From positions 1,476-65,475 of IMG/VR virus record IMGVR_UViG_3300028048_000141: a stretch of DNA of 64,000 bases. One strand, 5' to 3'. Under the pieces are notes generated by a model, which was not told the DNA's origin, did not search any database, and saw only the letters and a program-made list of their open reading frames with translations. Below, piece by piece: positions 4,341 to 64,000 of the stretch (position 1 is its first letter; each line of letters opens with the position of its first letter). The position numbers and the translations under genes are program-made. The DNA is from a virus.

Positions 4341-4501
4341 CAGGGAAAAACCCAGACCTTTGAATTTTTTAAACCCAAACATATTTTTAAGGGTATTTTT
4401 TAGAAACCGAATCCATTTGACGTATTTTGAGGCGGCCGGCCCGACCGAGGGAGGGGCCTCCGCGATGCGTCGTCCCCAATATACTGGAACGTTTCCCCAC
4501 C

Positions 4502-14682: not shown

Positions 14683-14757
14683 TGGCTGGGGCGGGTGGAT
14701 TCGGACCACCGCATCCGCGGTTCAAAGCCGCGTGCCTTACCGCTTGGCTACACCCCA
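14683..14757 (-). tRNA. tRNA-Gln (anticodon UUG)
   Basis: Cloverleaf parsed by hand. Acceptor UGGGGUG/CGCCCCA, anticodon loop CUUUGAA, encoded CCA. Confidence 0.75.
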
Positions 14758-14762
14758 ATGTG

Positions 14763-14838
14763 TGGCACCCTCTGGGGGACTCGAACCCTCAACCTACTGC
14801 TTAGGAGGCAGTCGCGATATCCTTTTCGCCAAGAGGGT
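14763..14838 (-). tRNA. tRNA-Arg (anticodon CCU)
   Basis: Acceptor ACCCUCU/AGAGGGU, loop CUCCUAA, T-loop UUCGAGU, CCA. Confidence 0.7.
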
Positions 14839-14846
14839 GTGTCGGT

Positions 14847-14922
14847 TGGCACCCCGGGCAGGACTCGAACCTGCAACTTACTGCTTAGAAGGCAGTTACT
14901 CTATCCATTGAGTTACCGGGGT
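14847..14922 (-). tRNA. tRNA-Arg (anticodon UCU)
   Basis: Acceptor ACCCCGG/CCGGGGU, D-stem ACUC/GAGU, loop CUUCUAA, 76 nt, CCA. Confidence 0.8.
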
Positions 14923-14950
14923 ATTTATGGGCTTTCCGTCCACCCACCGT

Positions 14951-14962
14951 ATATTATACACG
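14951..14962 (-). promoter_or_regulatory. internal motif-A promoter inside the tRNA cluster
   Basis: atattatacacg on the + strand. Confidence 0.4.
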
Positions 14963-15009
14963 AAATCGGCAGAGGATGCAAATGTTTTTTTTCGGATGCG
15001 TTCCATCCG

Positions 15010-15083
15010 TGGCGGGCCCTGAGAGAATCGAACTCACATTCTTCGGTTAACAGCCGAGCGTTCTGCCTTTGAACTAAGGGCCC
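15010..15083 (-). tRNA. tRNA-Asn (anticodon GUU)
   Basis: Acceptor GGGCCCU/AGGGCCC, loop CUGUUAA, T-loop UCGAUUC. Confidence 0.75.
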
Positions 15084-15086
15084 GTA

Positions 15087-15171
15087 TGGTGGGAGGTGAT
15101 AGAGTCGAACTACCCGAGCCGATGGCAACTGTTTTACAGACAGTCCCGCTACCCCTACGGTATAACCTCCC
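15087..15171 (-). tRNA. tRNA-Tyr (anticodon GUA), class II
   Basis: 85 nt with a long variable arm. Loop CUGUAAA. Acceptor GGGAGGU/ACCUCCC. Confidence 0.75.
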
Positions 15172-15175
15172 GCGT

Positions 15176-15246
15176 TGGTCGCCGCACATGGAATCGGACC
15201 ATGCCTACGGAGGTATGAACTCCGCTTCGCCCCAGACTATACGGCG
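15176..15246 (-). tRNA. tRNA-Met/Ile2-like (anticodon CAU)
   Basis: Anticodon stem CGGAG/CUCCG with loop UUCAUAC. T-arm CAUGG-UCCGAUU-CCAUG. The D-arm folds poorly. Confidence 0.5.
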
Positions 15247-15248
15247 TT

Positions 15249-15323
15249 TGGTGGATTAGGTTGCGCTCGAATCAACTTCTGCAGATTTTCAGTCTGCCAC
15301 TCTACCATATAAGTTACTAATCC
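15249..15323 (-). tRNA. tRNA-Phe (anticodon GAA)
   Basis: Acceptor GGAUUAG/CUAAUCC, anticodon stem GCAGA/UCUGC, loop CUGAAAA. Confidence 0.7.
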
Positions 15324-15327
15324 ATAT

Positions 15328-15405
15328 TGGTTGTGAGGACGGGATTCGAACCCATACCCTCCCGGCTCCGGACCGGGTGTGCTACCAAGTTACATCCACC
15401 TCACA
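15328..15405 (-). tRNA. tRNA-Pro (anticodon CGG)
   Basis: Stem CCCGG/CCGGG with loop UCCGGAG. Acceptor UGUGAGG/CCUCACA. Confidence 0.65.
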
Positions 15406-15409
15406 ATGT

Positions 15410-15485
15410 TGGTGCCCCGAGAGGGATTCGAACCCCCAGACTACTCGTTCTAAGCGAGCATTGTATACCGTTCCAGCATCGGGGC
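15410..15485 (-). tRNA. class-I tRNA-like with anticodon UAG (Leu-type anticodon in a 76-nt body); atypical D-arm
   Basis: Acceptor GCCCCGA/UCGGGGC, anticodon stem GCUCG/CGAGU, loop CUUAGAA, T-arm GGGGG-UUCGAAU-CCCUC. No canonical D-stem could be found. Confidence 0.4.
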
Positions 15486-15499
15486 GATTCGGACGGATG

Positions 15500-15574
15500 T
15501 GGTAGGCTGGGGCAGAGTCGGACTGCCGTCTCAGACTTATCAGGTCTGCGTTCTGACCGTTAAACTACGAGCCT
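15500..15574 (-). tRNA. tRNA-Ile (anticodon GAU)
   Basis: Stem CAGAC/GUCUG with loop CUGAUAA. T-arm GGCAG-UCCGACU-CUGCC. One C-C mismatch in the acceptor stem. Confidence 0.65.
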
Positions 15575-15580
15575 ATTCAT

Positions 15581-15658
15581 TGGCGGACCACGAGGGAGTC
15601 GAACCCTCCTCTCTACCGTGACAGGGTAGCATACTCAGAACCGATATACGAGTAGTCC
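15581..15658 (-). tRNA. tRNA-Asp (anticodon GUC)
   Basis: Stem CUACC/GGUAG with loop CUGUCAC. T-arm GAGGG-UUCGACU-CCCUC. Confidence 0.7.
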
Positions 15659-15662
15659 GTTT

Positions 15663-15739
15663 TGGTGCACTAGGGAGGGCTCGAACCTCCGACCTCCAAC
15701 TTGTAAGGTTGGCACTCATCCCATCTGAGTTACTAGTGC
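15663..15739 (-). tRNA. tRNA-Val (anticodon UAC)
   Basis: Acceptor GCACUAG/CUAGUGC, D-stem ACUC/GAGU, stem CCAAC/GUUGG, loop CUUACAA. Confidence 0.8.
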
Positions 15740-15748
15740 ATATTAATT

Positions 15749-15827
15749 TGGTCGGGAGGGTGGGATTCGAACCCACGCCCTCTTGCTTCCAACGCAAGCA
15801 CGATAGACCAAACTACGCTACCTCCCG
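15749..15827 (-). tRNA. tRNA-Pro (anticodon UGG)
   Basis: Acceptor CGGGAGG/CCUCCCG, stem CUUGC/GCAAG, loop GUUGGAA, T-arm GUGGG-UUCGAAU-CCCAC. Confidence 0.7.
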
Positions 15828-15930
15828 ATGAAAAAGGGTGACACGGATTTTTCGTCCATGCCACCCTCGAAGTTGATTTAGAGCCTTGTTACCGCTAATT
15901 ACCACCTGAAATGGGCATGGACAAATAACC

Positions 15931-15945
15931 AATCATATTATAATC
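15931..15945 (-). promoter_or_regulatory. motif-A-like -10 (TATAAT) upstream of the tRNA block 15010-15827
   Basis: + strand catattataatcaaag. Confidence 0.35.
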
Positions 15946-16025
15946 AAAGACTGGTCTGGGTTGCACGAATACGAGATTGTCGTTTAGTCTCTTTGTCATG
16001 ATTGTCCTTCTCCTTTTTCAGACAC

Positions 16026-16036
16026 TTAATTTAGCG
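16026..16036 (-). promoter_or_regulatory. motif B. Its AGCGA forms a hairpin with a downstream TCGCT
   Basis: + strand TTAATTTAGCGAgtcgttttCGCT. Confidence 0.4.
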
Positions 16037-16093
16037 AGTCGTTTTCGCTTCAATGATTTTGTTAACAAACTTTTCGATTATGTCGTTTGTCAA

Positions 16094-16181
16094 TGGCGGA
16101 GGCACCGCGACTCGAACGCGGACGCCGGTTGCCCGACGGACACCTTAGCAGGGTGTTGAGATGCCATTACTCCATGCCTCC
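16094..16181 (-). tRNA. tRNA-Ser (anticodon GCU), class II
   Basis: 88 nt. Acceptor GGAGGCA/UGCCUCC, loop CUGCUAA, long variable arm. Confidence 0.75.
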
Positions 16182-16195
16182 TGGTTTAACTTCAA

Positions 16196-16269
16196 TGGAG
16201 CGGGCGACGGGAATCGAACCCGTATGACCACCTTGGCAAGGTGGCGTTCTACCATTGAACTACGCCCGC
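16196..16269 (-). tRNA. tRNA-Gly (anticodon GCC)
   Basis: Acceptor GCGGGCG/CGCCCGC, D-stem GUUC/GAAC, stem CCACC/GGUGG, loop UUGCCAA. Confidence 0.8.
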
Positions 16270-16272
16270 AAA

Positions 16273-16347
16273 TGGAGCGGGATACCGGAATCGAACCGGC
16301 GTCTCCTGCTTGGAAGGCAGGGGCCCTGACCATTGGACTAATCCCGC
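16273..16347 (-). tRNA. tRNA-Gly (anticodon UCC)
   Basis: Acceptor GCGGGAU/AUCCCGC, stem CCUGC/GCAGG, loop CUUCCAA. Confidence 0.8.
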
Positions 16348-16350
16348 ATG

Positions 16351-16427
16351 TGGAGACCCCAACGGGATTCGGACCCGTGAATGCAACCTTGAGAGGGTTG
16401 TGACTTAAGCCGCTTGTCTATGGAGCC
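16351..16427 (-). tRNA. tRNA-Glu (anticodon CUC)
   Basis: Acceptor GGCUCCA/UGGGGUC with two G-U pairs. Stem CAACC/GGUUG, loop CUCUCAA. Confidence 0.65.
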
Positions 16428-16449
16428 GTTTTATGATGTTACTATACAC

Positions 16450-17100
16450 CACATCATGGGGGTGAGGCTTATTCTACGCTCGTTTCTATTTCGCCTCTGC
16501 CGTTCGCTTCCACGAGAAGGCACTTCACTAGCCCAGCCTGCTTTCTTCTTACAGGAACATTCTAGGTTCTACCTGGGAGGGACTGTACCCACATACACAG
16601 GATTCTGGGTGTGGAACTTTTCCGGATGCCGTTTTGTGCATCACACGCTGTACTTGGTGGACTCGTTTATGCTGTGCCCTTTTGCAGCCGTAGGCGTAAT
16701 ATCCCGCTTCCGTTTGAATTCGGGCAGTTTGATGTGATTGCCCGGCACATTAGGTGTGCACGCTTACCCTTCCTCTCGTCGTGCCTCCTACCGTTCCTTT
16801 TTTACTTCTTCGGCGTAACGGCTAAGATACCAATTAAGGTTTTGTTTATTTGTCCTGCTTCTTCAACGACCTGCGCCGTCTGAGCCGGGCCTTTTGATTC
16901 GACGCACTTCCCGGTCGCGTCACCATTAGCCAGGTCCTACCTTATCCTGGTTTTCAACCCCATTCTGCATCATCCCGGATATTCGGGACCGTTTTCTCAA
17001 GGGTGAGGTCGCAGAGGTTTTACGTCTTCGTGCCGACGGGCTGTAAACATGATGCCTTAATACAATCACTTGCGGCATATGCTGTTATCATAGGGAAGTG
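16450..17100 (-). ncRNA. candidate structured ncRNA of about 650 nt; ORF-free, downstream of tRNA-Trp
   Basis: No credible ORF; the + strand ORFs here overlap tRNAs or have no signals. GC-rich. Bounded by tRNA-Trp and the tRNA-Glu promoter. Identity unknown. Confidence 0.25.
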
Positions 17101-17112
17101 AATGACCTATGA

Positions 17113-17186
17113 TGGCAGGCCTGCTAGGATTCGAACCCGGATACGCGGTTTTGGAGACCGCAGTCCTACCGTTGGACGACAGACCT
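17113..17186 (-). tRNA. tRNA-Trp (anticodon CCA)
   Basis: Acceptor AGGUCUG/CAGGCCU, D-stem GUCC/GGAC, stem GCGGU/ACCGC, loop CUCCAAA. Confidence 0.7.
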
Positions 17187-17196
17187 ATGTTCAGGA

Positions 17197-17718
17197 TTAG
17201 TCTTCTTCCGACTTCTCCTGTTCGAGAACCCAATCCAGGTTCTCCTTGTCGACATACCATATCTCGGCCTCATCGCCGTCGATTTTGGTCGGGTGGAATA
17301 CCCAGTCGCCTGATTTGACCTTCAATGCGTCGTTGATGTAGACATCTCCCCATCCGTCGCATTTCCTGAAGCCAACCCAGTATTTCCAATCCTTAAGGAA
17401 CCTCTCGGCATCATTCGCCTTCATTTCCATAAGTTGTTCCTCGGTGAAGTAGTGTGACAGCAACCAAGCCGCGGCGTACTCCGAGGATATCGAATCCTCG
17501 TCAATACATACCTTACGGCAGATGCCGTCCATCAGGGCTCCGGCAGACAGTTTGTCGTAGACCCTGCCACCATAACCCTCGTGCATGCAGAACGTGGCGA
17601 TGTCCGCGTAATCGAGGACGACGTCCCTCTTGCCTTCGTATTCACCCATTGTGAAGTAATTGGCCGTGAGTTTGAAGTGGTCGACCACCTTCAATTCAAG
17701 TTCATCCAAAACAAGCAT
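17197..17718 (-). CDS. hypothetical protein
   Basis: The listed ORF start overlaps tRNA-His. The ATG at 17718 (MLVLDEL...) has an AAAGGAG RBS. Confidence 0.55.
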   Translation of the reverse strand: MLVLDELELKVVDHFKLTANYFTMGEYEGKRDVVLDYADIATFCMHEGYGGRVYDKLSAGALMDGICRKVCIDEDSISSEYAAAWLLSHYFTEEQLMEMKANDAERFLKDWKYWVGFRKCDGWGDVYINDALKVKSGDWVFHPTKIDGDEAEIWYVDKENLDWVLEQEKSEED

Positions 17719-17736
17719 AGACTCTCCTTTCTGCAT

Positions 17737-17811
17737 TGGGGTGGGATAAGGGTGTCGAACCCATGTCCTCCGGTTCACAGCCGGATGCACTGCCGTTGTG
17801 CTAATCCCACC
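17737..17811 (-). tRNA. tRNA-His (anticodon GUG) with a genomically encoded G-1 and C73
   Basis: Reads G-GUGGGAU...AUCCCAC-C-CCA. Stem UCCGG/CCGGA, loop CUGUGAA. The extra 5' G pairs with discriminator C73. Confidence 0.75.
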
Positions 17812-17819
17812 AAGGTATG

Positions 17820-17905
17820 TGGTGCCCATGGTCGGACTCGAACCGACACGCTTTAGGGGCGGCAGATTTTGAGTCTGCTGCGTCTACCGGTTTCGCCACA
17901 CGGGC
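17820..17905 (-). tRNA. tRNA-Leu (anticodon CAA), class II
   Basis: 86 nt. Stem GCAGA/UCUGC, loop CUCAAAA, long variable arm, T-arm GUCGG-UUCGAGU-CCGAC. Confidence 0.7.
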
Positions 17906-17909
17906 ATGA

Positions 17910-17997
17910 TGGCGGAGAGTTAGGGATTCGAACCCCAGGTAGGTTGCCCTACTTCTGTTTTCAAGACAGACGCCTTCGACCGCTCGGCCAACTCTCC
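17910..17997 (-). tRNA. tRNA-Ser (anticodon UGA), class II
   Basis: 88 nt. Acceptor GGAGAGU/ACUCUCC, loop CUUGAAA. Confidence 0.8.
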
Positions 17998-18026
17998 ATT
18001 ATGGCTCCAGAAGGAGCCGTCGTTCA

Positions 18027-18428
18027 TTACTTGTCGCTCTTCAAGTAGGCGTGGCGAGCATCCAACTCGTCGATGGCCTCGCGAACCGTGTGTGCAAGGT
18101 AATCGACCTTGTTGAGCAGTTTTACGAGTGCCTCGCGGGCTTCGCGGTTGCCTTTGGCTTCCGCACGCTTGGATGCTAACACCTTACCGAAGATTTCGTC
18201 ATAGACGTCGTTGGGATTGCATTTGGCAACGCCGGCGGTCTTGAATCCGACTTCGGCGTTGCAGGAATTCCAGTTGAACGCCTGCGCCTCGTCAAGGGCC
18301 CGCATGACTTCCGAATGGGCCTTGTCGATGGCTTTGTCGGGCCTGTAGTTGGTGATGCCAAGCACAGTGGTGACGGGTCCTTTGCGAATGACTTTCTTCT
18401 CGGTGAATTTGAATGCCTTGGTGCTCAT
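18027..18428 (-). CDS. hypothetical protein
   Basis: 133-aa ORF. Confidence 0.5.
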   Translation of the reverse strand: MSTKAFKFTEKKVIRKGPVTTVLGITNYRPDKAIDKAHSEVMRALDEAQAFNWNSCNAEVGFKTAGVAKCNPNDVYDEIFGKVLASKRAEAKGNREAREALVKLLNKVDYLAHTVREAIDELDARHAYLKSDK

Positions 18429-18458
18429 GAGATTTCCTCCTTAATTATAGGTATTCAT

Positions 18459-18532
18459 TGGTGCCCCAGGGTCGAATCGAACGGCCGTCGGATGCTTACA
18501 AGGCAACTGTTCTGCCATTAAACTACAAGGGC
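18459..18532 (-). tRNA. tRNA-Thr (anticodon UGU)
   Basis: Acceptor GCCCUUG/CUGGGGC, D-stem GUUU..GAAC, loop CUUGUAA. A few mismatches. Confidence 0.55.
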
Positions 18533-18621: not shown

Positions 18622-19350
18622 TTATTTGGACTTTCTTTTGATTGCCCTGTCAATCGCCACCCTGTGGATGGAAGGCACGTCCTTCAACTTGCCTCCCTCG
18701 ATGATTGATTTCAGGTTTACCGGGGTGTAGTCGATGAACTCGGCGCACATGTTCATCCTATTTGGGTTTCCGCCCTCCCAGTTCGAGTGGTCGTGTCCGT
18801 GGATGTTGAACATGTACGGTGGAAGGTTCTCTATCGGTTCGTGTGACAAGATTATTTTGTCGTTAATCATGAGGGGACCTTCGTAGACTTCGTCGAACAG
18901 TTTGTTGTCGACCGTCTCCACGGTCGTGTATTTGCTTAGGACGTAGGTGTTAGCCTTCCTGAAGGCCTGCTTGTCCCCGTTGATGGCGGCCATCGTGTAC
19001 ATGTTCAAGAGCGTCGCGTCCTCGGCGGTCATGTTCTCATTCGAGAATTTCTCGACGGTGTTGACTTCCCTCCTGTAGTTGGTGACACCCTTGTCGTGGT
19101 TGCCCATGATAAGGACTTTGTAACCTTTTATTTTCCTGATGTAGTTGACGTCCCCGATGTCGCCAAGGAAGATGATGGTGTCGTTTTTGCCGACCTTTTT
19201 GTTTATCCTTCTGACTTGCTCGTCGTCTCCGATGTAGTCTTTGCGGAGGTGTTTCATCTCATCGTCACCGAAATGCGGGTCGCTGTAAATCCAGATGCTT
19301 CCGCCACGATACCATTTATCCGCGAATATCTCGTATAGGTGTTTTTTCAT
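18622..19350 (-). CDS. calcineurin-like metallophosphoesterase
   Basis: Motifs SDPHFG, GDIGD, GNHD and GHDH. Confidence 0.7.
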   Translation of the reverse strand: MKKHLYEIFADKWYRGGSIWIYSDPHFGDDEMKHLRKDYIGDDEQVRRINKKVGKNDTIIFLGDIGDVNYIRKIKGYKVLIMGNHDKGVTNYRREVNTVEKFSNENMTAEDATLLNMYTMAAINGDKQAFRKANTYVLSKYTTVETVDNKLFDEVYEGPLMINDKIILSHEPIENLPPYMFNIHGHDHSNWEGGNPNRMNMCAEFIDYTPVNLKSIIEGGKLKDVPSIHRVAIDRAIKRKSK

Positions 19351-22887: not shown

Positions 22888-22963
22888 TGGTGGACCCTAC
22901 CGGGCTCGAACCGGTGACCTCCTGCTTGCAAAGCAGGCGTTCTCCCAACTGAACTAAGGGCCC
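22888..22963 (-). tRNA. tRNA-Ala (anticodon UGC)
   Basis: Acceptor GGGCCCU/AGGGUCC with a G3-U70 wobble. Stem CCUGC/GCAGG, loop UUUGCAA. Confidence 0.8.
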
Positions 22964-25665: not shown

Positions 25666-26541
25666 TTATTCCCCGACGTTGATGAGGTTTTCGACGTAGT
25701 CCCTTCCGGAGTCGACGAACCTCGGGATGTCGTCGTCGATATCCCATCTGCTGTAGAATTTGGTATCGCGTGGAAGTTCGCATGTGCTGTCTGTGAAGAA
25801 CAACCATCCGCCTTCCGGTGTCGGATAGACCTCTTCCTCGGAGTGCTCGTTTCCGTCGGGGTCCTTGAAGTAGCACCTCTTGACGCAGCAACTGCCACGT
25901 TTGTATGTGGTAGGTTCGTTTCCCCAAACAAATCCCTTCTCCCTCTCCATCTTGTCGACGAGTTGCGGGCAGGTGAGGTTTTGGAGTTGCTTGTGGGAGA
26001 ACATGGATTGGGCATAGGATTGGATGGAGTTCCTCTCCGCGTCCAACTGCCTCCAAAAAATGCAGTTCGTTACCTCTTCCTTCGGGATGTTGAACGCCCT
26101 GGCGTCGAACGTGGCCTGGAAGAGTTTCCTTGCGTATTTCTTGAATTCGTTTTCGTTCTCGGTCATCTCCGCGATGTTGTTCATGAACACCCTGTTGAAT
26201 TCGAGGGTGGCCATCGAAGCACTGATTGAGACGAGTTTCTGGACGTCGTATTCGAACCAGGCGGAAGACGTGAGCGTCTGATAGTCGACCAACACCAACG
26301 TGATTTCGTCCGATTGCGTGTATCCCAGGACGCAGCCCTGGATGTTCTTGCAGAGGTACTGCATCGTCTCCTGCATGGACTTGACGAGTATCGCGTCGAT
26401 TGGTTTGTCCATCCCCTTCGTGAATGTGTGGAAGGCCCTGCCGTCGATTCTGATGATTACCGGTGTCCTTCTGGTTAGTTTGAGTTTTGCGGGGTTTTCG
26501 TAGAATGCCTTCATCCTATCCCCAAGTGAGTCCTTTACCAT
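25666..26541 (-). CDS. Thg1-like protein (tRNA-His guanylyltransferase family, 3'-5' polymerase)
   Basis: VIIRIDGRAFHTF and LGYTQSDEITLVL match the two hallmark Thg1 catalytic motifs, VVVRLDGRNFHRF and AYGQSDEYSFVF. Confidence 0.75.
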   Translation of the reverse strand: MVKDSLGDRMKAFYENPAKLKLTRRTPVIIRIDGRAFHTFTKGMDKPIDAILVKSMQETMQYLCKNIQGCVLGYTQSDEITLVLVDYQTLTSSAWFEYDVQKLVSISASMATLEFNRVFMNNIAEMTENENEFKKYARKLFQATFDARAFNIPKEEVTNCIFWRQLDAERNSIQSYAQSMFSHKQLQNLTCPQLVDKMEREKGFVWGNEPTTYKRGSCCVKRCYFKDPDGNEHSEEEVYPTPEGGWLFFTDSTCELPRDTKFYSRWDIDDDIPRFVDSGRDYVENLINVGE

Positions 26542-30492: not shown

Positions 30493-30878
30493 CAGTAATC
30501 CTCCCCGTTGCCGTAATTCACCATGACTTCCCTGAGGTCCCGGTGTTGTTCCGCGGCCTCCATTATATCTATTAATTTAGCCTCACACAATTTCTTCCTC
30601 TGATAGAAGGTGGTATTGAGGAAGGTATTGATTTCCTTGATTATCTTTACTTCCTTGTATTCCATCCTCTTAAGGGAACTCGTGTAACCGTTGGGCAGAT
30701 GGTCGATGTCGGGGATGACCGGGCCCCAAGTGAATATGGTCGTGGTTCCAAGCGACGTCCTCGCCACCATGTAGAAGTACACACCATCCTCGGTGCATGC
30801 CTCTATGGCGAAATTGCCGATGTCCTCTATCTTCAATAGGTTCTGGGCCGTAGACAATCGATTGTATTCAAAATCCAT
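30492..30878 (-). CDS. hypothetical protein
   Basis: 128-aa ORF. It contains an internal motif-B-like 11-mer at 30573. Confidence 0.5.
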   Translation of the reverse strand: MDFEYNRLSTAQNLLKIEDIGNFAIEACTEDGVYFYMVARTSLGTTTIFTWGPVIPDIDHLPNGYTSSLKRMEYKEVKIIKEINTFLNTTFYQRKKLCEAKLIDIMEAAEQHRDLREVMVNYGNGEDY

Positions 30879-31549
30879 TATTTTTTGTCTTCCTTGATTT
30901 CCTCGGGCTTCTCAAGCGTGATTTCGCCTGACGCGACGCCTGCCATGAATTTAATGGCATCGTCGATTCTCTTCAACTCGGGGTCCTCCTGGATTTCCTT
31001 TTGGAGTTCCTCGTTCCTCTTCTTGAGGGAATCAATCCACATCTCGATGATTTGTGTTTGGATTTCCTCCGGTGCCTTGTCGAAGTCCTCGTCAATCTCA
31101 AGTCCGATGTCCGACAGTAGGATTCCGTCCAATAGGTTGACCATTTGCTCGAAGACCTCTGCGACCACGCCTTCGAACTTGTTTTCCTCGACGTATCCGT
31201 TGGGTTTCTGGTACTTGGCGAGGATTCTGTCGTGTCTTGGGGTGATGAACGTCCTTCCGGGGAGGCTCGGCGAGGTTTCCCTTGCCAAATGCATGCCTTC
31301 CGTCTTGGTAATCATCGGATTGACGAACGTCCTGATTTCCCCATCGGAGAATTTGATGCAGAAGATTCTGTCGTCGTGTCCCAATTGGGGTGCGGCGAGT
31401 GCGACGACGTCGACGTTGTCCTTCAAGGTGTCCTTGAGGTCCGAAACTATCGATTGCGCCTCGCCTCTGCGTTGAAGCACGTTGATTTCCTCGCTTCTTT
31501 CCGACAATTTGTCTGTGTCGGTGCTGATTTTCAATACGTATTTTGCCAT
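30878..31549 (-). CDS. peptide-deformylase-like protein with all three metal ligands replaced; predicted catalytically inactive
   Basis: PDF motif 1 is conserved (VALAAPQLG against G-x-G-x-AA-x-Q). Motif 2 EGCLS is changed to ETSPS. Motif 3 QHExDH is changed to FEQMVN. Acidic C-terminal tail. Confidence 0.5.
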   Translation of the reverse strand: MAKYVLKISTDTDKLSERSEEINVLQRRGEAQSIVSDLKDTLKDNVDVVALAAPQLGHDDRIFCIKFSDGEIRTFVNPMITKTEGMHLARETSPSLPGRTFITPRHDRILAKYQKPNGYVEENKFEGVVAEVFEQMVNLLDGILLSDIGLEIDEDFDKAPEEIQTQIIEMWIDSLKKRNEELQKEIQEDPELKRIDDAIKFMAGVASGEITLEKPEEIKEDKK

Positions 31550-43938: not shown

Positions 43939-44316
43939 TCAAATCCTTTCTAAGACCTTTACCATGTTGAGTGGGAGCCATCCCATCCACACGGTTGTCT
44001 TGTCCGTTTTCGTTGCTGGGTCGTAACCGAATCCCATGACCTTAATCATCCTGTTCATCTTGGAGAGCACCTCGACCTTGAAGTACTTGTCCTCCGGTAC
44101 CTTGCCCTGATTCCAGTTGCTTACCAGGATTTGGTTGGCCAACGGATTCAACAACGAATCGTCCAACTCAATCAGGTAGCAACTCCCGACGTCCATTCGC
44201 ACGTCCGATATCTTAGGTATGTGCCACGTCTTCGTCCGTGCGTCGTAATTGGATAAATCAGCCTCTTGGACCTTGGCCAATTGGCTTTCAATTATCTTGT
44301 TCATGCCTTTGCTCAA
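43939..44316 (-). CDS. hypothetical protein
   Basis: 125-aa ORF. Confidence 0.5.
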   Translation of the reverse strand: MSKGMNKIIESQLAKVQEADLSNYDARTKTWHIPKISDVRMDVGSCYLIELDDSLLNPLANQILVSNWNQGKVPEDKYFKVEVLSKMNRMIKVMGFGYDPATKTDKTTVWMGWLPLNMVKVLERI

Positions 44317-44926
44317 TCAGGTAACAACTCATCATATCGGCACAATGTAAGAGAGTCGTCAGACTGCTTTTCGCCAAAATCGAACACATGTCCTTGTTCG
44401 CGTATCCGATGTCGAGTCCGCAATTGAAGTTAATCAACGCCGAGGTCTCGTCGGGATTGAGGGGGATGAACTTGCTCACGAGTAGGAACGTGTTGACGGC
44501 TACGTTTCCGAGTTCCCTGTCTTCCGGTTCCCTGATTTTGAATTCCCTGACGGAAGTCCATTTCCCGTTCTCGTCCTTGACGTTCCTGGCGTATTCCGTG
44601 AAATAGTTCGCCTTGCCCAAATCGTGGAGCAGGGCGACCACCTTAAGCGAGTTCTCGTCGAACTTCCTTTCGTCCGCCAGTTTCTGTTCGCCGAGGTATT
44701 CCATGTACCCAGCCAATTCCACGATTACCCTGTATGTGTTTAGGGAATGCTCGCAAAGACCGCCGTCGTAGGCGGCGTGGCATTTAATGGACGCCGGTGC
44801 GAAGAAGAAATCGCTTTCGTCCAAAAACGAAATGAGACCGTCGATATCGGCCCCGTGGATGTCTATGGATTTCAATAGGTTGACGAACGTCGCCCTGTTC
44901 TGGACAATCTTTTCCTTTGTTAACAT
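44288..44926 (-). CDS. HD-domain phosphohydrolase
   Basis: H...HD pattern: CHAAYDGGLCEHS then LLHDLGK. Motif-A promoter at 44941-44955. Confidence 0.6.
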   Translation of the reverse strand: MLTKEKIVQNRATFVNLLKSIDIHGADIDGLISFLDESDFFFAPASIKCHAAYDGGLCEHSLNTYRVIVELAGYMEYLGEQKLADERKFDENSLKVVALLHDLGKANYFTEYARNVKDENGKWTSVREFKIREPEDRELGNVAVNTFLLVSKFIPLNPDETSALINFNCGLDIGYANKDMCSILAKSSLTTLLHCADMMSCYLIEQRHEQDN

Positions 44927-45522: not shown

Positions 45523-45597
45523 TGGTCCTCCAGCAGGGAGTCGAACCCCGATTTAGCCCTTATAAGGAGCCCACTCTGACCGTTGAGTTACAGGAGG
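45523..45597 (-). tRNA. tRNA-Ile (anticodon UAU, reads AUA)
   Basis: D-stem ACUC/GAGU. Anticodon stem GGCUC/GGGCU with G-U pairs. Loop CUUAUAA. T-arm CGGGG-UUCGACU-CCCUG. Confidence 0.55.
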
Positions 45598-45605
45598 ATA
45601 TGTCA

Positions 45606-45690
45606 TGGTGCCCAAGACCGGAGTCGAACCGGTATGCCTTTCGGCGAGGGATTTTAAGTCCCTTGCGTCTACCGATTCCGCCACTCGGGC
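45606..45690 (-). tRNA. tRNA-Leu (anticodon UAA), class II
   Basis: 85 nt. Acceptor GCCCGAG/CUUGGGC, stem AGGGA/UCCCU, loop CUUAAAA, long variable arm. Confidence 0.75.
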
Positions 45691-57652: not shown

Positions 57653-58339
57653 TCATTGGTTCTTTAATTTTCTTTTGTCAAGTCCCTTGAACTGTATTGC
57701 GTCGGACGCATTGAAGATTCTGCTGTATAATCTGTCACCGACCGCGTCCTTTAACTCTTCCTTCCCCAAATTGGAAGTGAATATGTTGGACTTTCCGTGG
57801 AATATCCTGCCATCGATGAACGACAACAGGTTCTCGGCCTCGAACGACGTGATTGCCTTTGTGGCGATGTCGTCCCAGACCACGATGTCAGCCGATAGGA
57901 TGTTCTTCTTGATGTGTTCGACGTACTCGCTCTTGTTTGAGATGTTTTCCTTGAGTGCTATCAGGAACTGGGGAACGTTGATGAACAACGCCCTGCAGGT
58001 CAACTCGGACTTATACCAAATCTTATTTAGATATGATTGGATAAGGACAATCGCCCATGACGTCTTCCCGCATCCGCATTGGCTTGAATACAGATATAGG
58101 TTCTTTCCGGAGCCGACGAATTCGAGTATGTTGTTCGATACGGAACTGAGATAGTCATAAACGTCCTTATCCGGGTCGTTGGTATAGAGATAGAACTCCG
58201 GCCTCTTTCTCATTTCGTGCGGGATTAGGGCCTCATCGAACAGGTAGTCCAACTTGAAGTGCTTAAGGCAGAACGTATCGCAGTCGGCATGGCTGCACGA
58301 ATCCTTCATCCAGCAGTTATCATTGTCTATCGTTAACAT
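57653..58339 (-). CDS. DnaC/IstB-like AAA+ helicase loader
   Basis: Walker A SQCGCGKTSWAI. Walker B VVWDDI. Confidence 0.65.
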   Translation of the reverse strand: MLTIDNDNCWMKDSCSHADCDTFCLKHFKLDYLFDEALIPHEMRKRPEFYLYTNDPDKDVYDYLSSVSNNILEFVGSGKNLYLYSSQCGCGKTSWAIVLIQSYLNKIWYKSELTCRALFINVPQFLIALKENISNKSEYVEHIKKNILSADIVVWDDIATKAITSFEAENLLSFIDGRIFHGKSNIFTSNLGKEELKDAVGDRLYSRIFNASDAIQFKGLDKRKLKNQ

Positions 58340-58514
58340 CGATTGGCCCCCTTTCCTCGTTCTTTCTTAAAGTGAAAAAGGAGACGTCATCATATTCAGG
58401 ATTGGCCAAGCACTCGTTCAAGAACCTGACGGCATCCCCCTTGTTGTCGAAATTCCTAACCACCTTAGAATAAGGCATGTTGATTCCGACGGTTAACGTT
58501 ACTGTGTATGACAT
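58320..58514 (-). CDS. hypothetical small protein
   Basis: 64-aa ORF. Confidence 0.4.
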   Translation of the reverse strand: MSYTVTLTVGINMPYSKVVRNFDNKGDAVRFLNECLANPEYDDVSFFTLRKNEERGPIDVNDRQ

Positions 58515-58529
58515 GATGACATCCTCCCG

Positions 58530-59273
58530 TTATTTTCGTTTGCTTCGTTTGTATTCCTCGATTTGCTCGTCGGACAACTCGCTTTGGGCCGTGTTCCTGA
58601 CGGATTTAGTCGAAGAAGACCTGGGCATTAAGCACTCGTATGCCCAGTTGCAATTAGTATACGACATCGTGATTGCGATGTCAATGACTTTCAACATCGT
58701 GTCGACGTCTCCGTTTGTGAGTTTTACCAACTTCTTCTGGAAATCCGTCACGATTACCTTGGTCAAGGCCTTATTGGTATCACACAGTGAATCAATCCAG
58801 GAACCGAGCATCTCCCGAACCTTCTCGTCCAATTCGGGCATGATGTAGTGCTTGAGCCTTTCGGCCACTTTTTCCCTCCTTGCCTTGGTCATGTCCTTGA
58901 TTCCGCAGGTGTTCCTGATGTCATCAATCAACACGCTATCCGCCGGAATCATCATGAGGTTGAACACCTTATTGAAGTCTACCTTTATGACGTCGCCGGT
59001 TTCCCTTTCGAGAATCTTGAGTGTGATTAGGTTATCCTCAATCTTCCTTTGTTCGGCGACGTCGAGGGTTGTCCTTCCCTTTATGTATTTTCTGTCGACG
59101 TAGAAGAATCCGTTGTCGACGCAGTTCTTTACGACCGCTTTCCTATATATCCTAAGCAACTCGGAGATATACACCGCCCCGATAAGGCCAAACCCCGCGT
59201 TATTCGCGAGGTTGATATTGTATGATACGTAGTTGTCCGGGTTGAACGCCGCGGTTACGTCTATATCGAGCAT
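58530..59273 (-). CDS. hypothetical protein; replication-initiation role possible from position alone
   Basis: 247 aa, directly upstream of the helicase-loader gene. Confidence 0.45.
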   Translation of the reverse strand: MLDIDVTAAFNPDNYVSYNINLANNAGFGLIGAVYISELLRIYRKAVVKNCVDNGFFYVDRKYIKGRTTLDVAEQRKIEDNLITLKILERETGDVIKVDFNKVFNLMMIPADSVLIDDIRNTCGIKDMTKARREKVAERLKHYIMPELDEKVREMLGSWIDSLCDTNKALTKVIVTDFQKKLVKLTNGDVDTMLKVIDIAITMSYTNCNWAYECLMPRSSSTKSVRNTAQSELSDEQIEEYKRSKRK

Positions 59274-60157
59274 CCTGTCAATTCCTTTCTCAAGAATCTC
59301 TTGACCCTATCGAGTTTCTTATGCATCTTGGAACTGTAATATCCATGCATTTCCTTGGTGAATTCGAGAACTTTATTGGAATCCAACCCGAACTGTTCCG
59401 CGAACTCGATGGCGTCTTCGTCTGGAATATAGTGGAGATACTCGATAAGGGTTCTGTCGCTGTAGTTCCCACTCTCGTCGGAAACCATGATACCTTCGCC
59501 CCTGGCGATTGCCCAGGTCGTTATCGCCCCGAAGAGGTTGTCCTGCCCAAGCAACTTGACCACAAAACCGTCTACCGAGTCTGATTTCGAGAAATAGGTG
59601 TCCTCCACATACAGCGTGTCGCCCAACGTGACTACGTCACCTGACTTCTCATATTGCTGAACTATGTCGTCAAGGCTGATGGTATTGTAGTCGAACCTCC
59701 TCTTGATATAGTTGCTTCGCTGGTATTGTGTGCACCTGACGGAGTAGATGCACCTGTTGATGCATTTCTCAGGGCCTCTGCGGTCGTTGTAGAACTTGAA
59801 GTCCTTGTCCAACCATTTCCTCGCTTTCCTGTCGGTCGCCTTTTGGATACCCATGAAAATCCAGTCAATCATGTCCGACATTTCATAGCCGCTGCCTGCA
59901 CTCTGCTTGTAGAAAAGCGGAACGAGGTGCCAGTATCTAACCAATAAGGCACTGATGTATTTGTCCTTTGCCTCTTCGTCGTTGGCATCCCTCGCCTCGC
60001 AGTATTTGTTTGCGAGCACGTCGATGTCATACGGGACGTCTTCCTTCTGTCCGACTATAAAACCGGGAATGCATGACGCCCTATCCGTGAATTGCTTGTA
60101 TACCTTGTATAGACTCATTTGCTTTCCTCCTCCATAATCCCCATCAGTATAACACAT
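59261..60157 (-). CDS. hypothetical protein; weak resemblance to a divergent sigma factor
   Basis: ISALLVRYWHLVPLFYKQ is like sigma region 2. C-terminal IPDEDAIEFAEQFGLDSNKVLEFTKE looks like an HTH. Speculative. Confidence 0.3.
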   Translation of the reverse strand: MCYTDGDYGGGKQMSLYKVYKQFTDRASCIPGFIVGQKEDVPYDIDVLANKYCEARDANDEEAKDKYISALLVRYWHLVPLFYKQSAGSGYEMSDMIDWIFMGIQKATDRKARKWLDKDFKFYNDRRGPEKCINRCIYSVRCTQYQRSNYIKRRFDYNTISLDDIVQQYEKSGDVVTLGDTLYVEDTYFSKSDSVDGFVVKLLGQDNLFGAITTWAIARGEGIMVSDESGNYSDRTLIEYLHYIPDEDAIEFAEQFGLDSNKVLEFTKEMHGYYSSKMHKKLDRVKRFLRKELTGCSI

Positions 60158-60325
60158 ACGTCCACTCCGGTCAAACGTTTTTACCAGGGAGGTCTGAATG
60201 TTACCCTGTCTATCTTGACGATTTCCTCATAAGCGAGAATAACTCCCCGACGGATATTTCCTTTCCGAGGGGGAGTCTGTTCGCTACATGGAGGCTTTGA
60301 TGCAGGGTCAAAACCTCTTTCATGC

Positions 60326-61693
60326 TTAATTTCCTCCGGGAACGATGATGCTGAGTGCGTCGTCACCAGCGACAACGTCAGGCAAGTTGCCATCCCATTT
60401 AGCGAGGTATGCGAGGTATTGTAGGTAGTCCTCTACGAGCGATTTGAACTTATCGGCACCGGGTCCGGTTGTGATGTCGATGTCATACTTGGTGGCAACC
60501 AACGTGACCGTCGTGGTTACCGTCATAGTTCCGGTTTCGATTCCGACGGTTTCTGTCGTGGTGGATTCCGCCTGTTTGACATCGAACACGTCTTCGGCAG
60601 TCGCGATTGTTACGTCACCGTTGGAGTATTCGGTCTTGACTTCTGTCTTGTAAGTATACTCTTCGTTGACGGTATAACCTATGGTTCTCGCCAACTCGAT
60701 GATGTTGTAGGTTGCCGCCTCGGCTGAAGCCTGCGCGACAATCTTCTGCGCCTCGGCGTTACCGTGGGCCTCCTCGATTTTCTTCTTCGCCTCAAGTTTG
60801 GCGACCTCCAATTCGGCTTCCGCCTTGGTGATGGACGCCTGCTTTTGCTGTTCCGCGATGACTTTGTCCTCGACGGCCTTCTCGAACTCATCTGTGAAAT
60901 CGATGTTGGTCAAGACGACGTCTTTGACGTTCACGTAATAGTCGGCGGAGATTCCATTCCTGACGTTATCGGAAACGTTATTGGAGAATTGCGCACGGTT
61001 TTGGATGATTGTCATGGCTTCGGCGGAAGACATGATGGCCTTCGTCTTTTCGATGGCGACTGTTTCGATACGGGCCTGAAGTGCGTCGAGGCTTCCGTAT
61101 TCGGTCGCGATTTTCATGATGTTCTCGCTTTGGACCTGATACTGTAAGAATACCTCAAGTTCCATCGTCTGCCCGTCTTTGGAATAGGCGAACGTGGTGA
61201 TTTTGTCCTGTTGGACCTTGGTATCGTAGGTTTCGTACTTGTTGGTCATGTAGAAGTCGAAGTACGTGCCCGGCAACCTCAAATCGTTAATCTTACCGAG
61301 TTGTCTGACGACGGCGACGGTACCGGTTTCGACCTGATGGAACGAACCGGGGACGGTGATGACGAACGCCAATGCGGCCAATGTCAGGCCGACGGCGGTC
61401 AAGAATCCGAGGGGCTTTGCCTCAGTGACCTGATGTTCGGCCTTGTACTGTTCGACGAGTGTATCGTATTTCTTGTTTTCCCTGGCGAGTTCCGCATCTG
61501 CTGTCTTACCGGAATACTGAAACTTGATATAGTCGATGCTTTCCTTGTGTTTTTTCTCGAGTTCGGCCAAGCCGTCTTCGTAACGGGATTCCTCTTCGCT
61601 CCTCTTGGAGTATTTGATTCCCTGCCAGATGGCGATGCCGGCCACGGCGGCCAATACCAAGAAACCCACCGTGAATAGAATTGCCTTAATCAT
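60326..61693 (-). CDS. SPFH/band-7 (stomatin/HflC-like) membrane protein
   Basis: N-terminal TM helix, second TM, SPFH core VETGTVAVVRQLGKINDLRLPGTYF, coiled coil, Thr-rich C-terminus. Confidence 0.65.
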   Translation of the reverse strand: MIKAILFTVGFLVLAAVAGIAIWQGIKYSKRSEEESRYEDGLAELEKKHKESIDYIKFQYSGKTADAELARENKKYDTLVEQYKAEHQVTEAKPLGFLTAVGLTLAALAFVITVPGSFHQVETGTVAVVRQLGKINDLRLPGTYFDFYMTNKYETYDTKVQQDKITTFAYSKDGQTMELEVFLQYQVQSENIMKIATEYGSLDALQARIETVAIEKTKAIMSSAEAMTIIQNRAQFSNNVSDNVRNGISADYYVNVKDVVLTNIDFTDEFEKAVEDKVIAEQQKQASITKAEAELEVAKLEAKKKIEEAHGNAEAQKIVAQASAEAATYNIIELARTIGYTVNEEYTYKTEVKTEYSNGDVTIATAEDVFDVKQAESTTTETVGIETGTMTVTTTVTLVATKYDIDITTGPGADKFKSLVEDYLQYLAYLAKWDGNLPDVVAGDDALSIIVPGGN

Positions 61694-61722
61694 ATCCTTT
61701 CATGTCCTCCTGATTAAAACGA

Positions 61723-63996
61723 TTATAACCTGAATTTAGATAGGGAGTCAAAGCATTTTTCCATGAATTTCTCCCTGAGGCTGATTATATCCGTCGGATA
61801 TGGATACGTGGGTGCCTCGCCCTTCGTCTTGACGGCGTCGTTCTCATATGCGTCCCTGCAGAACGCGTAGAATAGGTTTTCGAGGTATGACGTCAACATT
61901 CCCGTCTTCGTGATGTAACCGCATCTCAACGTCGTCGTCGCGACTCCCCTCAACTTCTTCCATAGATTGTAGTATCCCGTCTTGGCCTTGAACATGAATC
62001 CGGCCGAGTCCTCGAACACGAATCCCTCGACGTACTCACCGTTCAATTGGTATTCTACGTCATCCAAGGATTTGTAGAACTCATATAACGAATCCCAGTC
62101 CTTGAACTCATATACCAACTTCTTATGCTCGAACCCGAGTTCGTCCGCGATTGCCGACATCTCATTGTATCCGAGTTTCTCGAACGTGAGTTTGTTTTTT
62201 ATGATGTCAAGCAACACGAGTTTGCTCTTATCGTATTTTATGATGTGCGGGTCGTTCTTTACGTCGATGCACTCGAACACGAAACTGACTTTTTCGTCCG
62301 GGTTTTGCAGGGTTTTCTGTTTTTCCCTGAACCAGTTCAACAAAGAGTTCCATAACTTGTCGTCGTCTTGGTGCAACGCCGTGTGGATGTATTTGGCGAA
62401 ATCCCCGCCGAGTGATGACTTGCTTGCAATCAACAGGTCGTCCTTTTCCTCGTCATATGACACGATTGCGAGGAACCCGTTCTCCTTAAGGTAGGCCGAT
62501 ACCGGGAACACCAGGTTTGATTTGAGCGAAGCGGGCTCAGTGGCCGCGACCTCGCCGACCCTGAAGAACTTCTCATAACTCCTTGCCGCCACCTCATACT
62601 TGGCCGTGTCGATGAACAGGCCGCGTGCCAGGATTGTCTGACGGTTCCAGTTGCCCTTCTCGAAGGCTTCCCTGCTGAAGTTGAATGACGAGATGTTCCT
62701 ACCTTGGTCCTTCTCGTTGACGAACCTGTTGTTTCTGAGATAGTCTACGGCATCCTTGACCGTTTCGACCGGCCTTTCCTCCGTGTTGAGGTTTTCGTTG
62801 ACCGGCTGGCAGTCGTCCAGGTAAACGGGCGTCCACTTCAGGTTCCTGTCCAACTCTACGATTCTGAGTTGTCCGCCGAACTCGACCCTGCCCTCAAGGT
62901 TGAAAACCCTGTCGCAGATATCGATTTCGCTGCCCTCCGTGTTCCTGTGGCCATGGACGAGGAATTGGTTTTCCTTCGTCTGCGCCATCCAGGATTCGGA
63001 AACGGTGATGTAGTCGCTGTAGGTCCCGGCCCCGTGGATGAACTTATCCGTAGGCAGGAACAACGGGTTAGTGTTCAGGTTGGGGATGCCGCCATGGCAG
63101 GCGAGAATCTCCAAACCGTTGTATGTGATGTGGGAGAACTGCCTGCATTTGCGGTAGAACATCCTGGCCATCTTCTCGTCGAATCCGCCCTCAATCAAAG
63201 CCGGCTTCGTCTTGTATTCGAACTCGCGTGACCTGGCTGGAACACCTTCGCCGTAATCGCGAATCCAACGCTCGTGGTTTCCCTCAAGCAGACAGACGTT
63301 CGGCAGGTCCTTGATTGAATCAAGCCACTTCAGAACCTCGCAGTTTTGGTTTCCGCGGTCGATGTAGTCGCCCAAGAAGATGTATTCGTATTTCGGATTC
63401 AATCCGTTTTTGAAATCCGGATACTGCATCAAGGTGTCGAAGCACCCGTGGATGTCCCCGACGAACACGAGTTTTTCGTACTCGGAGACGTCGAACGGCT
63501 CGTCCAGGATGGATTCGAATTCGTCCGGCTGGATTACCTTGATTCCCGCCGGGACCTTTTGGGTCGCGTAACGGGCGTAGATATTGAGGATTGCCTTATC
63601 CGGAACAATCTTCTCCTGGGGCCTCATCCTGTTTTGCTTCAGACATGTCTCAAGCGGAACGCCCGTGAAATCTACGCAGAACATCCTGTATCTGTACTTG
63701 GACGCAAGGTCCTTGTACTGCTGCATGTCCTTGGTCTTTGAGCAGGTTGCGTCGATGACGGTGAATTCGCCGCGTTGCATCCTGTGCTCAAGAATCTTGA
63801 ACAAGACTGACCAAACCTCGTTTTCGTTGTCCCTTTCCTGCGAGATTGAGAACTCGCCGAAAGCGTTCAGGTCGACTGAACTGCAGAGGATTCTGATGTC
63901 GTCCGGGGACAACGTGTAGTTCTTAAGGTGGTGCTTCTCAATCCAGGTCGTTTTGCCTGCGCCAGGGGCACCACGCATCAATAATAGAGTTCTCAT
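61723..63996 (-). CDS. Pnkp-like RNA repair enzyme: 5' kinase, metallophosphatase, and ligase/adenylyltransferase domains
   Basis: P-loop GAPGAGKTT. Central calcineurin-like motifs VFVGDIHGC, GDYIDRG and GNHE. C-terminal KENG lysine motif. Same domain order as Clostridium thermocellum Pnkp. Confidence 0.7.
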   Translation of the reverse strand: MRTLLLMRGAPGAGKTTWIEKHHLKNYTLSPDDIRILCSSVDLNAFGEFSISQERDNENEVWSVLFKILEHRMQRGEFTVIDATCSKTKDMQQYKDLASKYRYRMFCVDFTGVPLETCLKQNRMRPQEKIVPDKAILNIYARYATQKVPAGIKVIQPDEFESILDEPFDVSEYEKLVFVGDIHGCFDTLMQYPDFKNGLNPKYEYIFLGDYIDRGNQNCEVLKWLDSIKDLPNVCLLEGNHERWIRDYGEGVPARSREFEYKTKPALIEGGFDEKMARMFYRKCRQFSHITYNGLEILACHGGIPNLNTNPLFLPTDKFIHGAGTYSDYITVSESWMAQTKENQFLVHGHRNTEGSEIDICDRVFNLEGRVEFGGQLRIVELDRNLKWTPVYLDDCQPVNENLNTEERPVETVKDAVDYLRNNRFVNEKDQGRNISSFNFSREAFEKGNWNRQTILARGLFIDTAKYEVAARSYEKFFRVGEVAATEPASLKSNLVFPVSAYLKENGFLAIVSYDEEKDDLLIASKSSLGGDFAKYIHTALHQDDDKLWNSLLNWFREKQKTLQNPDEKVSFVFECIDVKNDPHIIKYDKSKLVLLDIIKNKLTFEKLGYNEMSAIADELGFEHKKLVYEFKDWDSLYEFYKSLDDVEYQLNGEYVEGFVFEDSAGFMFKAKTGYYNLWKKLRGVATTTLRCGYITKTGMLTSYLENLFYAFCRDAYENDAVKTKGEAPTYPYPTDIISLREKFMEKCFDSLSKFRL

Positions 63997-64000
63997 TTCC

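Follow-up and report, generated by a model that had tools for sequence, protein, structure and literature searches.

Does the gene that closes the right-hand end of the viral DNA analysed here encode a bacterial Pnkp, the repair enzyme that works with Hen1, or an RNA repair enzyme of another kind, and which RNA ends would such an enzyme join? The gene lies at 61723..63996 in a 64,000-nucleotide (nt) stretch, hereafter the window, that corresponds to positions 1,476 to 65,475 of the IMG/VR record IMGVR_UViG_3300028048_000141, and it had been predicted, from the letters alone, to carry a kinase, a phosphatase and a ligase in the architecture of bacterial Pnkp. Our analysis shows that the encoded protein is a hybrid, in which the end-healing half of Pnkp is combined in one chain, and without Hen1, with a different ligase, of the type seen in the tRNA ligase Trl1. 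That this is a trifunctional heal-and-seal enzyme acting on RNA is, in our view, very probable, and we assign a probability of roughly 50% to the fuller statement that it also seals through a 2'-phosphate route.

A complete gene encoding three domains

The original prediction had reported one open reading frame (ORF) here and left its strand unstated. The ORF list and its translation give a single, complete gene of 757 amino acids (aa) plus stop that occupies exactly this interval of the minus strand, inside the 64-kb window, with the start ATG at 63996 and the stop codon at 61723-61725, while the plus-strand reading of the same interval contains many stops. Because the gene runs leftwards, the side past window position 64000 is upstream of it. 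Its features are as follows.

61723..63996, minus strand: complete ORF for the kinase-phosphoesterase-ligase protein (ORF list; full-length match to PHROG 8238, E-value (E) 5.9e-198; 3764 homologues)
63502..63996, minus strand: P-loop polynucleotide 5'-kinase domain, aa 1-165
63949..63972, minus strand: P-loop GAPGAGKT, aa 9-16, read from the translation, with G9, P11, G12, G14 and K15 invariant
62797..63489, minus strand: binuclear metallophosphoesterase domain, aa 170-400
61978..62736, minus strand: ATP-dependent RNA ligase adenylyltransferase domain, aa 421-673 (Pfam, profile matches to Trl1-LIG and T4 Rnl1, conservation)
61726..61977, minus strand: C-terminal helical domain of the ligase, aa 674-757, with homology to that of Trl1-LIG

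All the motifs quoted earlier are found in the translation, namely GDIHGC (aa 180-185), GDYIDRG (aa 209-215), GNHE (aa 239-242) and KENG (aa 504-507), and the three domains do share one polypeptide in the Pnkp order, with the kinase followed by the calcineurin-type phosphoesterase and the lysine nucleotidyltransferase (ligase), all with Pfam matches far above chance. The predicted catalytic motifs of the three domains are all intact. The database copy of the protein, P0001, encoded on the 105-kb metagenomic contig ERZ27252073 k141_269272 (locus L001), is a single residue apart (N677D, window codon 61966-61968), and the window and this contig are 99.96% identical, with 5 nt differences in 12.3 kb, so that the window represents a very close strain variant of contig k141_269272 and not the contig itself. 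The sequence past the window edge was taken from L001. We also compared with solved structures a structure of the window protein predicted from a 35-sequence alignment, with a mean predicted local distance difference test score (pLDDT) of 82.

A ligase of the Trl1 type

The Pfam family RNA_lig_T4_1 (PF09511) matches aa 457-676 over profile positions 2-227 of 227 (E 5e-37), and the module has the makeup of the Rnl1 family, that is, an adenylyltransferase with an Rnl1-type N sub-domain and motifs I, III, IV and V. Its key residues are R458, K476-F-F, K504-E-N-G of motif I (62476-62487), K526, E575 of motif III, H584 (62245-62247), E657-G-F-V-F of motif IV (62014-62028) and K670-A-K672 of motif V (61981-61989), and among the relatives the classic ligase positions R458, K476, K504, G507, K526, E575, E657, G658, K670 and K672 are conserved. 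In T4 Rnl1 we take the counterparts of these ten residues to be R54, K75, K99, G102, K119, E159, E227, G228, K240 and K242, a numbering that draws in part on PMC6379707.

When a profile made of the window ligase module and 19 stand-alone homologues of 310-350 aa was searched against all PDB sequences, it matched the Trl1-LIG of C. glabrata (9qw7) with E 2e-36 and that of C. thermophilum (6n0v) with E 2.7e-31, the latter alignment running through the helical C-domain to residue 396 of 407. T4 Rnl1 was matched with E 3e-14 and in the adenylyltransferase domain only; the alignments end with that domain, and the C-terminal tRNA-specificity domain of T4 Rnl1 is not common to the window ligase. No Rnl4 structure, the ligase type of bacterial Pnkp, was among the top matches. 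Taken over its whole length, C-domain included, the window ligase resembles Trl1-LIG clearly more than it does T4 Rnl1.

The C-domain carries two recognisable motifs. Right after motif V stands W679-K680-x-x-R683 (61948-61962), a W-K-x-x-R motif common to Trl1, and D736-I-I-S-L-R741 (61774-61791) lies near the C-terminus, where DIISLREKF in the window protein faces GIIKLRNDF in Trl1 (I-I-x-L-R-x-x-F). With a profile of the C-domain alone, the two Trl1 C-domains ranked first and third of 20,002 sequences, 20,000 of which were composition-matched shuffles (E 0.003-0.005), a result consistent with the fold comparison. As in Rnl6, then, a distinctive helical C-domain is attached to an Rnl1-like adenylyltransferase; it is this C-domain that defines the Rnl6 clade, and Banerjee et al. 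found no structural relative for it (PMC6379707).

A candidate 2'-phosphate site

In CthTrl1-LIG, the C. thermophilum enzyme, a sulfate taken as a mimic of the terminal 2'-phosphate (2'-PO4) is bound by N150, H227, R334 and R337, and these 2'-PO4-binding residues were said to occur in the Trl1 clade alone (PMC6379707). When H227, R334 or R337 is mutated, RNA adenylylation becomes 60- to 580-fold slower (PMC11404444). The aligned counterparts in the window ligase are N506, H584, K680 and R683, respectively. Among 312 aligned relatives, which include tri-domain proteins, stand-alone ligases, and phage as well as bacterial copies, N506 is N in 310, H584 is H in 308, K680 is K in 302 and R in 3, and R683 is R in 304. 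The triad reads His-Lys-Arg where Trl1 has His-Arg-Arg, and is of the Rnl6 kind with a conservative Arg-to-Lys change at its middle position. On the strength of the alignment, the window ligase keeps near-invariant putative counterparts of the triad that in Trl1 enforces a 2'-phosphate end.

The end-healing half

Both of the other domains are closest to those of the Pnkp of C. thermocellum (CthPnkp). The kinase is recognised by Pfam as an AAA_33 P-loop kinase at aa 4-142 (E 2.9e-18), has K15/T16 in the P-loop, D32 as the putative general base, R35 and R125, and matches the CthPnkp kinase with E 1.2e-6 in such a way that K15, D32 and R35 align with the catalytic K21, D38 and R41. The phosphoesterase gives a Metallophos match at aa 175-354 (E 1.5e-15) and carries GDIHG (63445-63459), GDYIDRG (63352-63372), GNHE (63271-63282) and HGH (62947-62955), as well as H301. 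Two hallmarks of bacterial Pnkp are thus present, a CthPnk-type N-terminal kinase and a central, binuclear (lambda-phosphatase-like) metallophosphoesterase 2',3'-phosphatase domain. The view that the phosphatase is not the HAD enzyme of T4 also held, in that a Pfam scan of the window protein returned Metallophos and no HAD family, and hence none of the HAD (DxDxT) acylphosphatase domain of T4 Pnkp. We also asked whether H348, replaced by F, N or Y in some 27 sequences, could be a metal ligand that certain relatives have lost, and judged it peripheral because H350 is the invariant His of the GH motif.

One position of this domain bears directly on the chemistry of the product. CthPnkp acts on both DNA and RNA ends; it opens the cyclic phosphate to a 2'-phosphomonoester, the 3'-OH,2'-PO4 intermediate, and removes the latter more slowly. 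The wild-type enzyme channels tRNA halves to T4 Rnl1 and not to the yeast ligase, and the H189D mutant, a cyclic phosphodiesterase only, stops at the 2'-PO4 and feeds yeast Trl1 (PMC1920235). The counterpart of H189, needed for monoesterase activity, is H183 in the window protein, and it is kept in 237 of the 265 relatives with a residue at that position. In a sub-clade of about 23 representatives, Myxococcota among them, GDLQG replaces GDIHG, a His-to-Gln change at the H189 equivalent. This natural change falls on the very site whose mutation reprograms CthPnkp, so the site is evolutionarily labile in the family. Members of the sub-clade are L025, L026, L028 and L035 together with some 20 cluster representatives (P0161, P0171 and P0182, for example), and are often longer, at 800-913 aa; no Tpt1 was found within 6 kb of their genes.

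Tpt1 beside bacterial copies of the gene

Tpt1/KptA, the 2'-phosphotransferase that would clear a 2'-phosphate junction, was searched for with E. coli KptA as the query (phmmer) against all ORFs of the fetched loci, 32 of which are bacterial. A Tpt1/KptA gene adjoins the tri-domain gene on the same strand in 14 of these 32, with E-values between 1e-43 and 2e-51 for 12 intact genes and weaker ones for L018 and L015 (6e-32 and 1e-25 to 4e-17), and Pfam PF01885 confirmed two examples (E 2e-42 and 6e-43). Two gene orders illustrate the association. In Phascolarctobacterium (L012 3412-8199) a WCX-domain (WYL-type) regulator is followed by a 63-aa ORF, Tpt1, Thg1 and the tri-domain enzyme; in L030 (2793-10146) the order is IleRS, tri-domain enzyme, Tpt1 and a DEAD-box helicase. 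Both operons are apparently chromosomal. The WYL-type regulator of L012 hints at control by damaged RNA ends, and Thg1, found both in this operon and in our phage, may belong to a common repair toolkit. The adjacency of Tpt1 suggests a repair route of the yeast type, through a 2'-phosphate.

Which junction would the enzyme leave?

We propose a self-contained, Hen1-independent RNA repair enzyme. By homology, its Pnkp-type P-loop kinase would phosphorylate the 5'-OH, its Pnkp-type metallophosphoesterase would open the 2',3'-cyclic phosphate, and its ligase, once adenylylated on K504, would join the ends. The ligase would do so on the 3'-OH,2'-PO4 intermediate, giving a junction with a 2'-phosphate that a Tpt1/KptA-type 2'-phosphotransferase, host-supplied in this phage, or possibly the enzyme's own phosphomonoesterase, might later clear. 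Sealing of the 3'-OH,2'-PO4 end is favoured, at about even odds, because N506, H584, K680 and R683 are kept.

Several points weigh against this proposal. One position of the triad has Lys for Arg, and the C-domain homology, taken alone, is modest, as one of the 20,000 shuffles scored equally high. H183 is intact, so the enzyme should be able to remove the phosphate completely and leave 2'-OH,3'-OH. The 14 Tpt1-linked loci form one clade, with at least 58% mutual identity and about four sublineages, which makes the association real but phylogenetically narrow. Tpt1 lies within 10 kb of the gene in none of 80 IMG/VR viral loci, and none was found in the 79 kb of this phage's 105-kb contig that we covered: a Tpt1 hidden Markov model run on all ORFs of at least 80 aa (window, L001, L123) gave nothing better than E = 1, and Pfam found no PF01885 in the 20 window ORFs scanned, which are 149-321 aa long. 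Tpt1 is encoded by 98 isolated phages, such as Erwinia and Dickeya jumbo phages and C. difficile phiCD211-like phages, and none of the Staphylococcus and Lactobacillus carriers of the tri-domain gene is in this set. Finally, our literature search found no activity measured for any member of the family, and that the target is tRNA cut by a host nuclease is a proposal from genomic context.

The alternative that fares best on these data is a clean route in the manner of T4, in which the phosphate is fully removed, an Rnl1-like reaction seals 3'-OH to 5'-PO4, no 2'-phosphate junction arises and Tpt1 is dispensable; in that case the conserved His-Lys-Arg would bind a different phosphate of the RNA. 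The retention of H183, the channelling of tRNA halves to T4 Rnl1 by wild-type CthPnkp and the missing Tpt1 in the 79 kb covered of the phage, around the viral loci and in the Staphylococcus and Lactobacillus carriers all fit such a route, which we regard as a serious if rather doubtful option. It sits poorly with a ligase that is closer to Trl1-LIG than to T4 Rnl1 and has the C-domain of the former rather than the latter, with the near-invariance of residues held to be unique to the Trl1 clade, and with the operonic Tpt1 of one bacterial clade.

Genomic context and biological role

On the same strand, immediately upstream of the tri-domain gene and separated from it by a 12-nt gap, is a gene for a 70-aa predicted membrane protein (L001 9776-9988), preceded after a 23-nt gap by a CCA-adding enzyme of 484 aa (L001 8298-9752), in which PolyA_pol head, RNA-binding and HD domains are recognised, and then by an AAA ATPase. 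CCA enzyme, small ORF and tri-domain gene also stand together in L004, the closest syntenic relative, and in other relatives the gene has PhoH, a release factor and a tRNA synthetase in its vicinity (L005). Downstream, 29 nt away, is a 455-aa SPFH/Band_7 protein (window 60326-61693, minus strand), and beyond it replication genes (DnaC-like, DnaB, primase, PolA). The SPFH/Band_7 protein carries a membrane segment at its N-terminus and a long extension at its C-terminus, and is not at the matching position in L004. A Hen1 partner had been anticipated just past position 64000, but a Pfam scan of ten neighbours in L001 gave neither Hen1 nor any methyltransferase, and neither of these adjoined the gene at the relatives' loci examined.

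The window also holds 25 minus-strand tRNA genes (ARAGORN), most of them packed closely into a single block, at 14683-18532, 22888-22963 and 45523-45690; ARAGORN flagged no intron in any of them. A Thg1-like tRNA 3'-5' nucleotidyltransferase gene is at 25666-26541 (minus strand, Pfam Thg1 E 6.8e-30), and a peptide deformylase gene at 30878-31549 (minus strand, Pfam Pep_deformylase E 6.8e-22). Together, tRNAs, CCA enzyme, Thg1-like gene and deformylase fit a phage that invests heavily in ongoing translation. In this setting, the repair enzyme would sustain a working supply of tRNAs in the infected cell whenever anticodon nucleases of the host, or other defences that cut RNA, are triggered, with the phage tRNAs, the CCA-adding enzyme and the Thg1-like 5'-end repair polymerase as its partners. 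Judging from the 25 tRNA genes, the CCA enzyme and the Thg1-like gene, a counter-defence role in tRNA repair is plausible.

The gene might instead serve no counter-defence at all and be employed in routine processing or maturation of phage RNAs, for example those of the phage's own tRNA cluster, or in end repair during replication. Its position between the CCA-adding enzyme and the replication genes would suit such a role, CthPnkp accepts DNA as well as RNA ends, and the host nuclease that a counter-defence would answer is hypothetical. We nevertheless hold a routine role to be unlikely, since ligases of the Rnl1/Trl1 type are RNA-specific in every characterised case (PMC6379707), the 25 tRNA genes show no introns, and the bacterial homologues stand beside the tRNA repair genes Tpt1 and Thg1 and not beside replication genes.

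Relation to characterised repair systems

Three heal-and-seal designs have been worked out biochemically, namely T4 Pnkp with Rnl1, bacterial Pnkp with Hen1, and fungal/plant Trl1 with Tpt1, and the present family is a hybrid of the last two, with a Pnkp healing half and a Trl1-type sealing half. The protein would work like known heal-and-seal systems and is a member of none of the three, and its ligase has the sequence and structural features of Rnl6.

With the fungal and plant system it shares the trifunctional heal-and-seal layout and a ligase whose homology spans the whole module and takes in both the helical C-domain and the residues that bind 2'-PO4 in Trl1; in one bacterial clade, Tpt1 is operonic with homologues of the window gene. 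Trl1, however, has the order LIG-KIN-CPD, with a GTP-dependent KIN, in place of kinase-phosphoesterase-ligase; it heals the 3' end with a 2H cyclic phosphodiesterase, whereas here a metallophosphoesterase is present and Pfam finds no 2H domain; its triad is His-Arg-Arg rather than His-Lys-Arg; and the hosts here are phage and bacteria, which have no need for tRNA splicing. The T4 system that answers PrrC is likewise encoded by a phage and heals and seals broken tRNA, but consists of two proteins instead of one, has an HAD phosphatase (DxDxT), and carries an Rnl1 C-domain that the window protein lacks. Presumably comparable is ORF86 of the baculovirus AcNPV, which unites an Rnl1-like ligase, a P-loop kinase and a 3'-phosphatase in a single polypeptide, with the order ligase-kinase-phosphatase and a phosphatase of the T4 HAD type. 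In Runella slithyformis, end-healing enzymes, an ATP-dependent ligase and Tpt1 also occur together, in an HD-Pnk/ligase/Tpt1 cluster that was proposed as the sign of a repair pathway installing 2'-phosphate junctions (PMC6097658); there the HD phosphoesterase is fused to the kinase and the ligase is separate, and the likeness noted here is one of gene content.

Of the architecture of bacterial Pnkp that had been predicted, the domain order and the healing half stood, and membership of the Pnkp family did not. C. thermocellum Pnkp has a P-loop 5'-kinase, a binuclear metallophosphoesterase and a lysine adenylyltransferase in the same order, but is 870 aa long against 757 aa here, and its ligase is Rnl4 where the window protein has an Rnl1/Rnl6-like one; as no Hen1 partner is found here, no 2'-O-methyl mark is expected. 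That the protein should be a genuine member of the Pnkp-Hen1 system, with a ligase that needs Hen1 and a junction marked by 2'-O-methylation, is extremely improbable: the identical domain order, the closeness of kinase and phosphatase to CthPnkp and the rank of bacter_Pnkp (TIGR04075) as top NCBIfam match speak for it, and it is refuted by the clade of the ligase, by the absence of Hen1 and any methyltransferase beside the gene, and by the curated score, 66.3 bits against an equivalog cut-off of 750, from the kinase-phosphatase half only (profile positions 9-428 of 851).

The family seems to be a hybrid not yet characterised, through which bacterial Tpt1 could be linked to a substrate. It is conceivable, though we hold it somewhat short of an even chance, that these ligases form a prokaryotic branch of the Trl1 (Rnl6) clade, so far regarded as fungal, plant and kinetoplastid only, that they seal 3'-OH,2'-PO4 ends and would thereby provide the pathway, long sought in bacteria, by which internal 2'-phosphates enter RNA, and that they supply the natural substrate of bacterial Tpt1/KptA. 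If the His-Lys-Arg site does enforce a 2'-phosphate end, the Rnl6 clade would extend beyond eukaryotes and it would become possible to address where their tRNA-splicing ligase came from; why bacteria retain Tpt1/KptA, a question posed in PMC6097658, could then be tested directly, with both the enzyme and its operon (Tpt1, Thg1, tri-domain enzyme) defined. In phages without Tpt1, the host enzyme could strip the 2'-phosphate from the junction or, alternatively, this phosphate could persist and block re-cleavage by transesterifying anticodon nucleases, which would parallel the 2'-O-methyl mark that Hen1 leaves in the Pnkp-Hen1 system. For phage biology, the enzyme would be a candidate counter-measure to a growing list of tRNA-cleaving defence systems. 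Neighbourhoods of Thg1, PNK and RNA ligase in bacteria were noted in 2010 (PMC2904730), and KptA-based repair in phages has been discussed before (PMC7824862, PMC9503650). Our literature search found no paper on a phage or bacterial Trl1-type ligase or on the biochemistry of the window protein, and an earlier computational description is possible.

Distribution of the family

The family is already catalogued as PHROG 8238 (phage 'RNA ligase', tri-domain), with residues 1-747 of the window protein aligning to profile positions 1-732 of 737, and the gene is an ordinary member of a common phage family. The 3764 homologues listed above were counted at E<=1e-5. An exhaustive search with the ligase module gave roughly 1,400 clusters at E<=0.001, of which 533 reach E<=1e-30, most of these 533 being proteins of 710-790 aa with a C-terminal ligase (tri-domain) and a minority stand-alone ligases of 310-370 aa. 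Full-length homologues with 35-41% identity are present in 140 isolated phage genomes, including Staphylococcus Twort-like phages and Sepunavirus, Bacillus SPbeta-like, Lactobacillus, Fusobacterium and Brochothrix phages, where they are currently annotated as 'RNA ligase', 'polynucleotide kinase' or 'hypothetical'. At the nucleotide level, megablast of window 58000-64000 against isolated phages gave no match. The bacterial genomes that carry the gene are mainly those of gut Firmicutes, Succinivibrionaceae and Myxococcota.

Other genes in the window

Several further genes are recorded here in their own right. An HD-domain protein (44288-44926) and two stand-alone calcineurin-like phosphoesterases (18622-19350 and 5106-6071) are encoded on the minus strand of the window, and extra Metallophos genes are also found near the tri-domain gene in the relatives L005 and L006. 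On L001, the anaerobic ribonucleotide reductase NrdD is present as two adjacent ORFs of 466 and 155 aa (103-2233 and 3715-4341) with a radical-SAM activase nearby, which could mean that the gene is split, is interrupted by an intein or intron, or carries a frameshift. Two large LRR_5 proteins, at window 6864-9662 and 11606-13861 (both minus strand; L123 6431-9208 and 2211-4466), perhaps have a role in receptor binding or host interaction.

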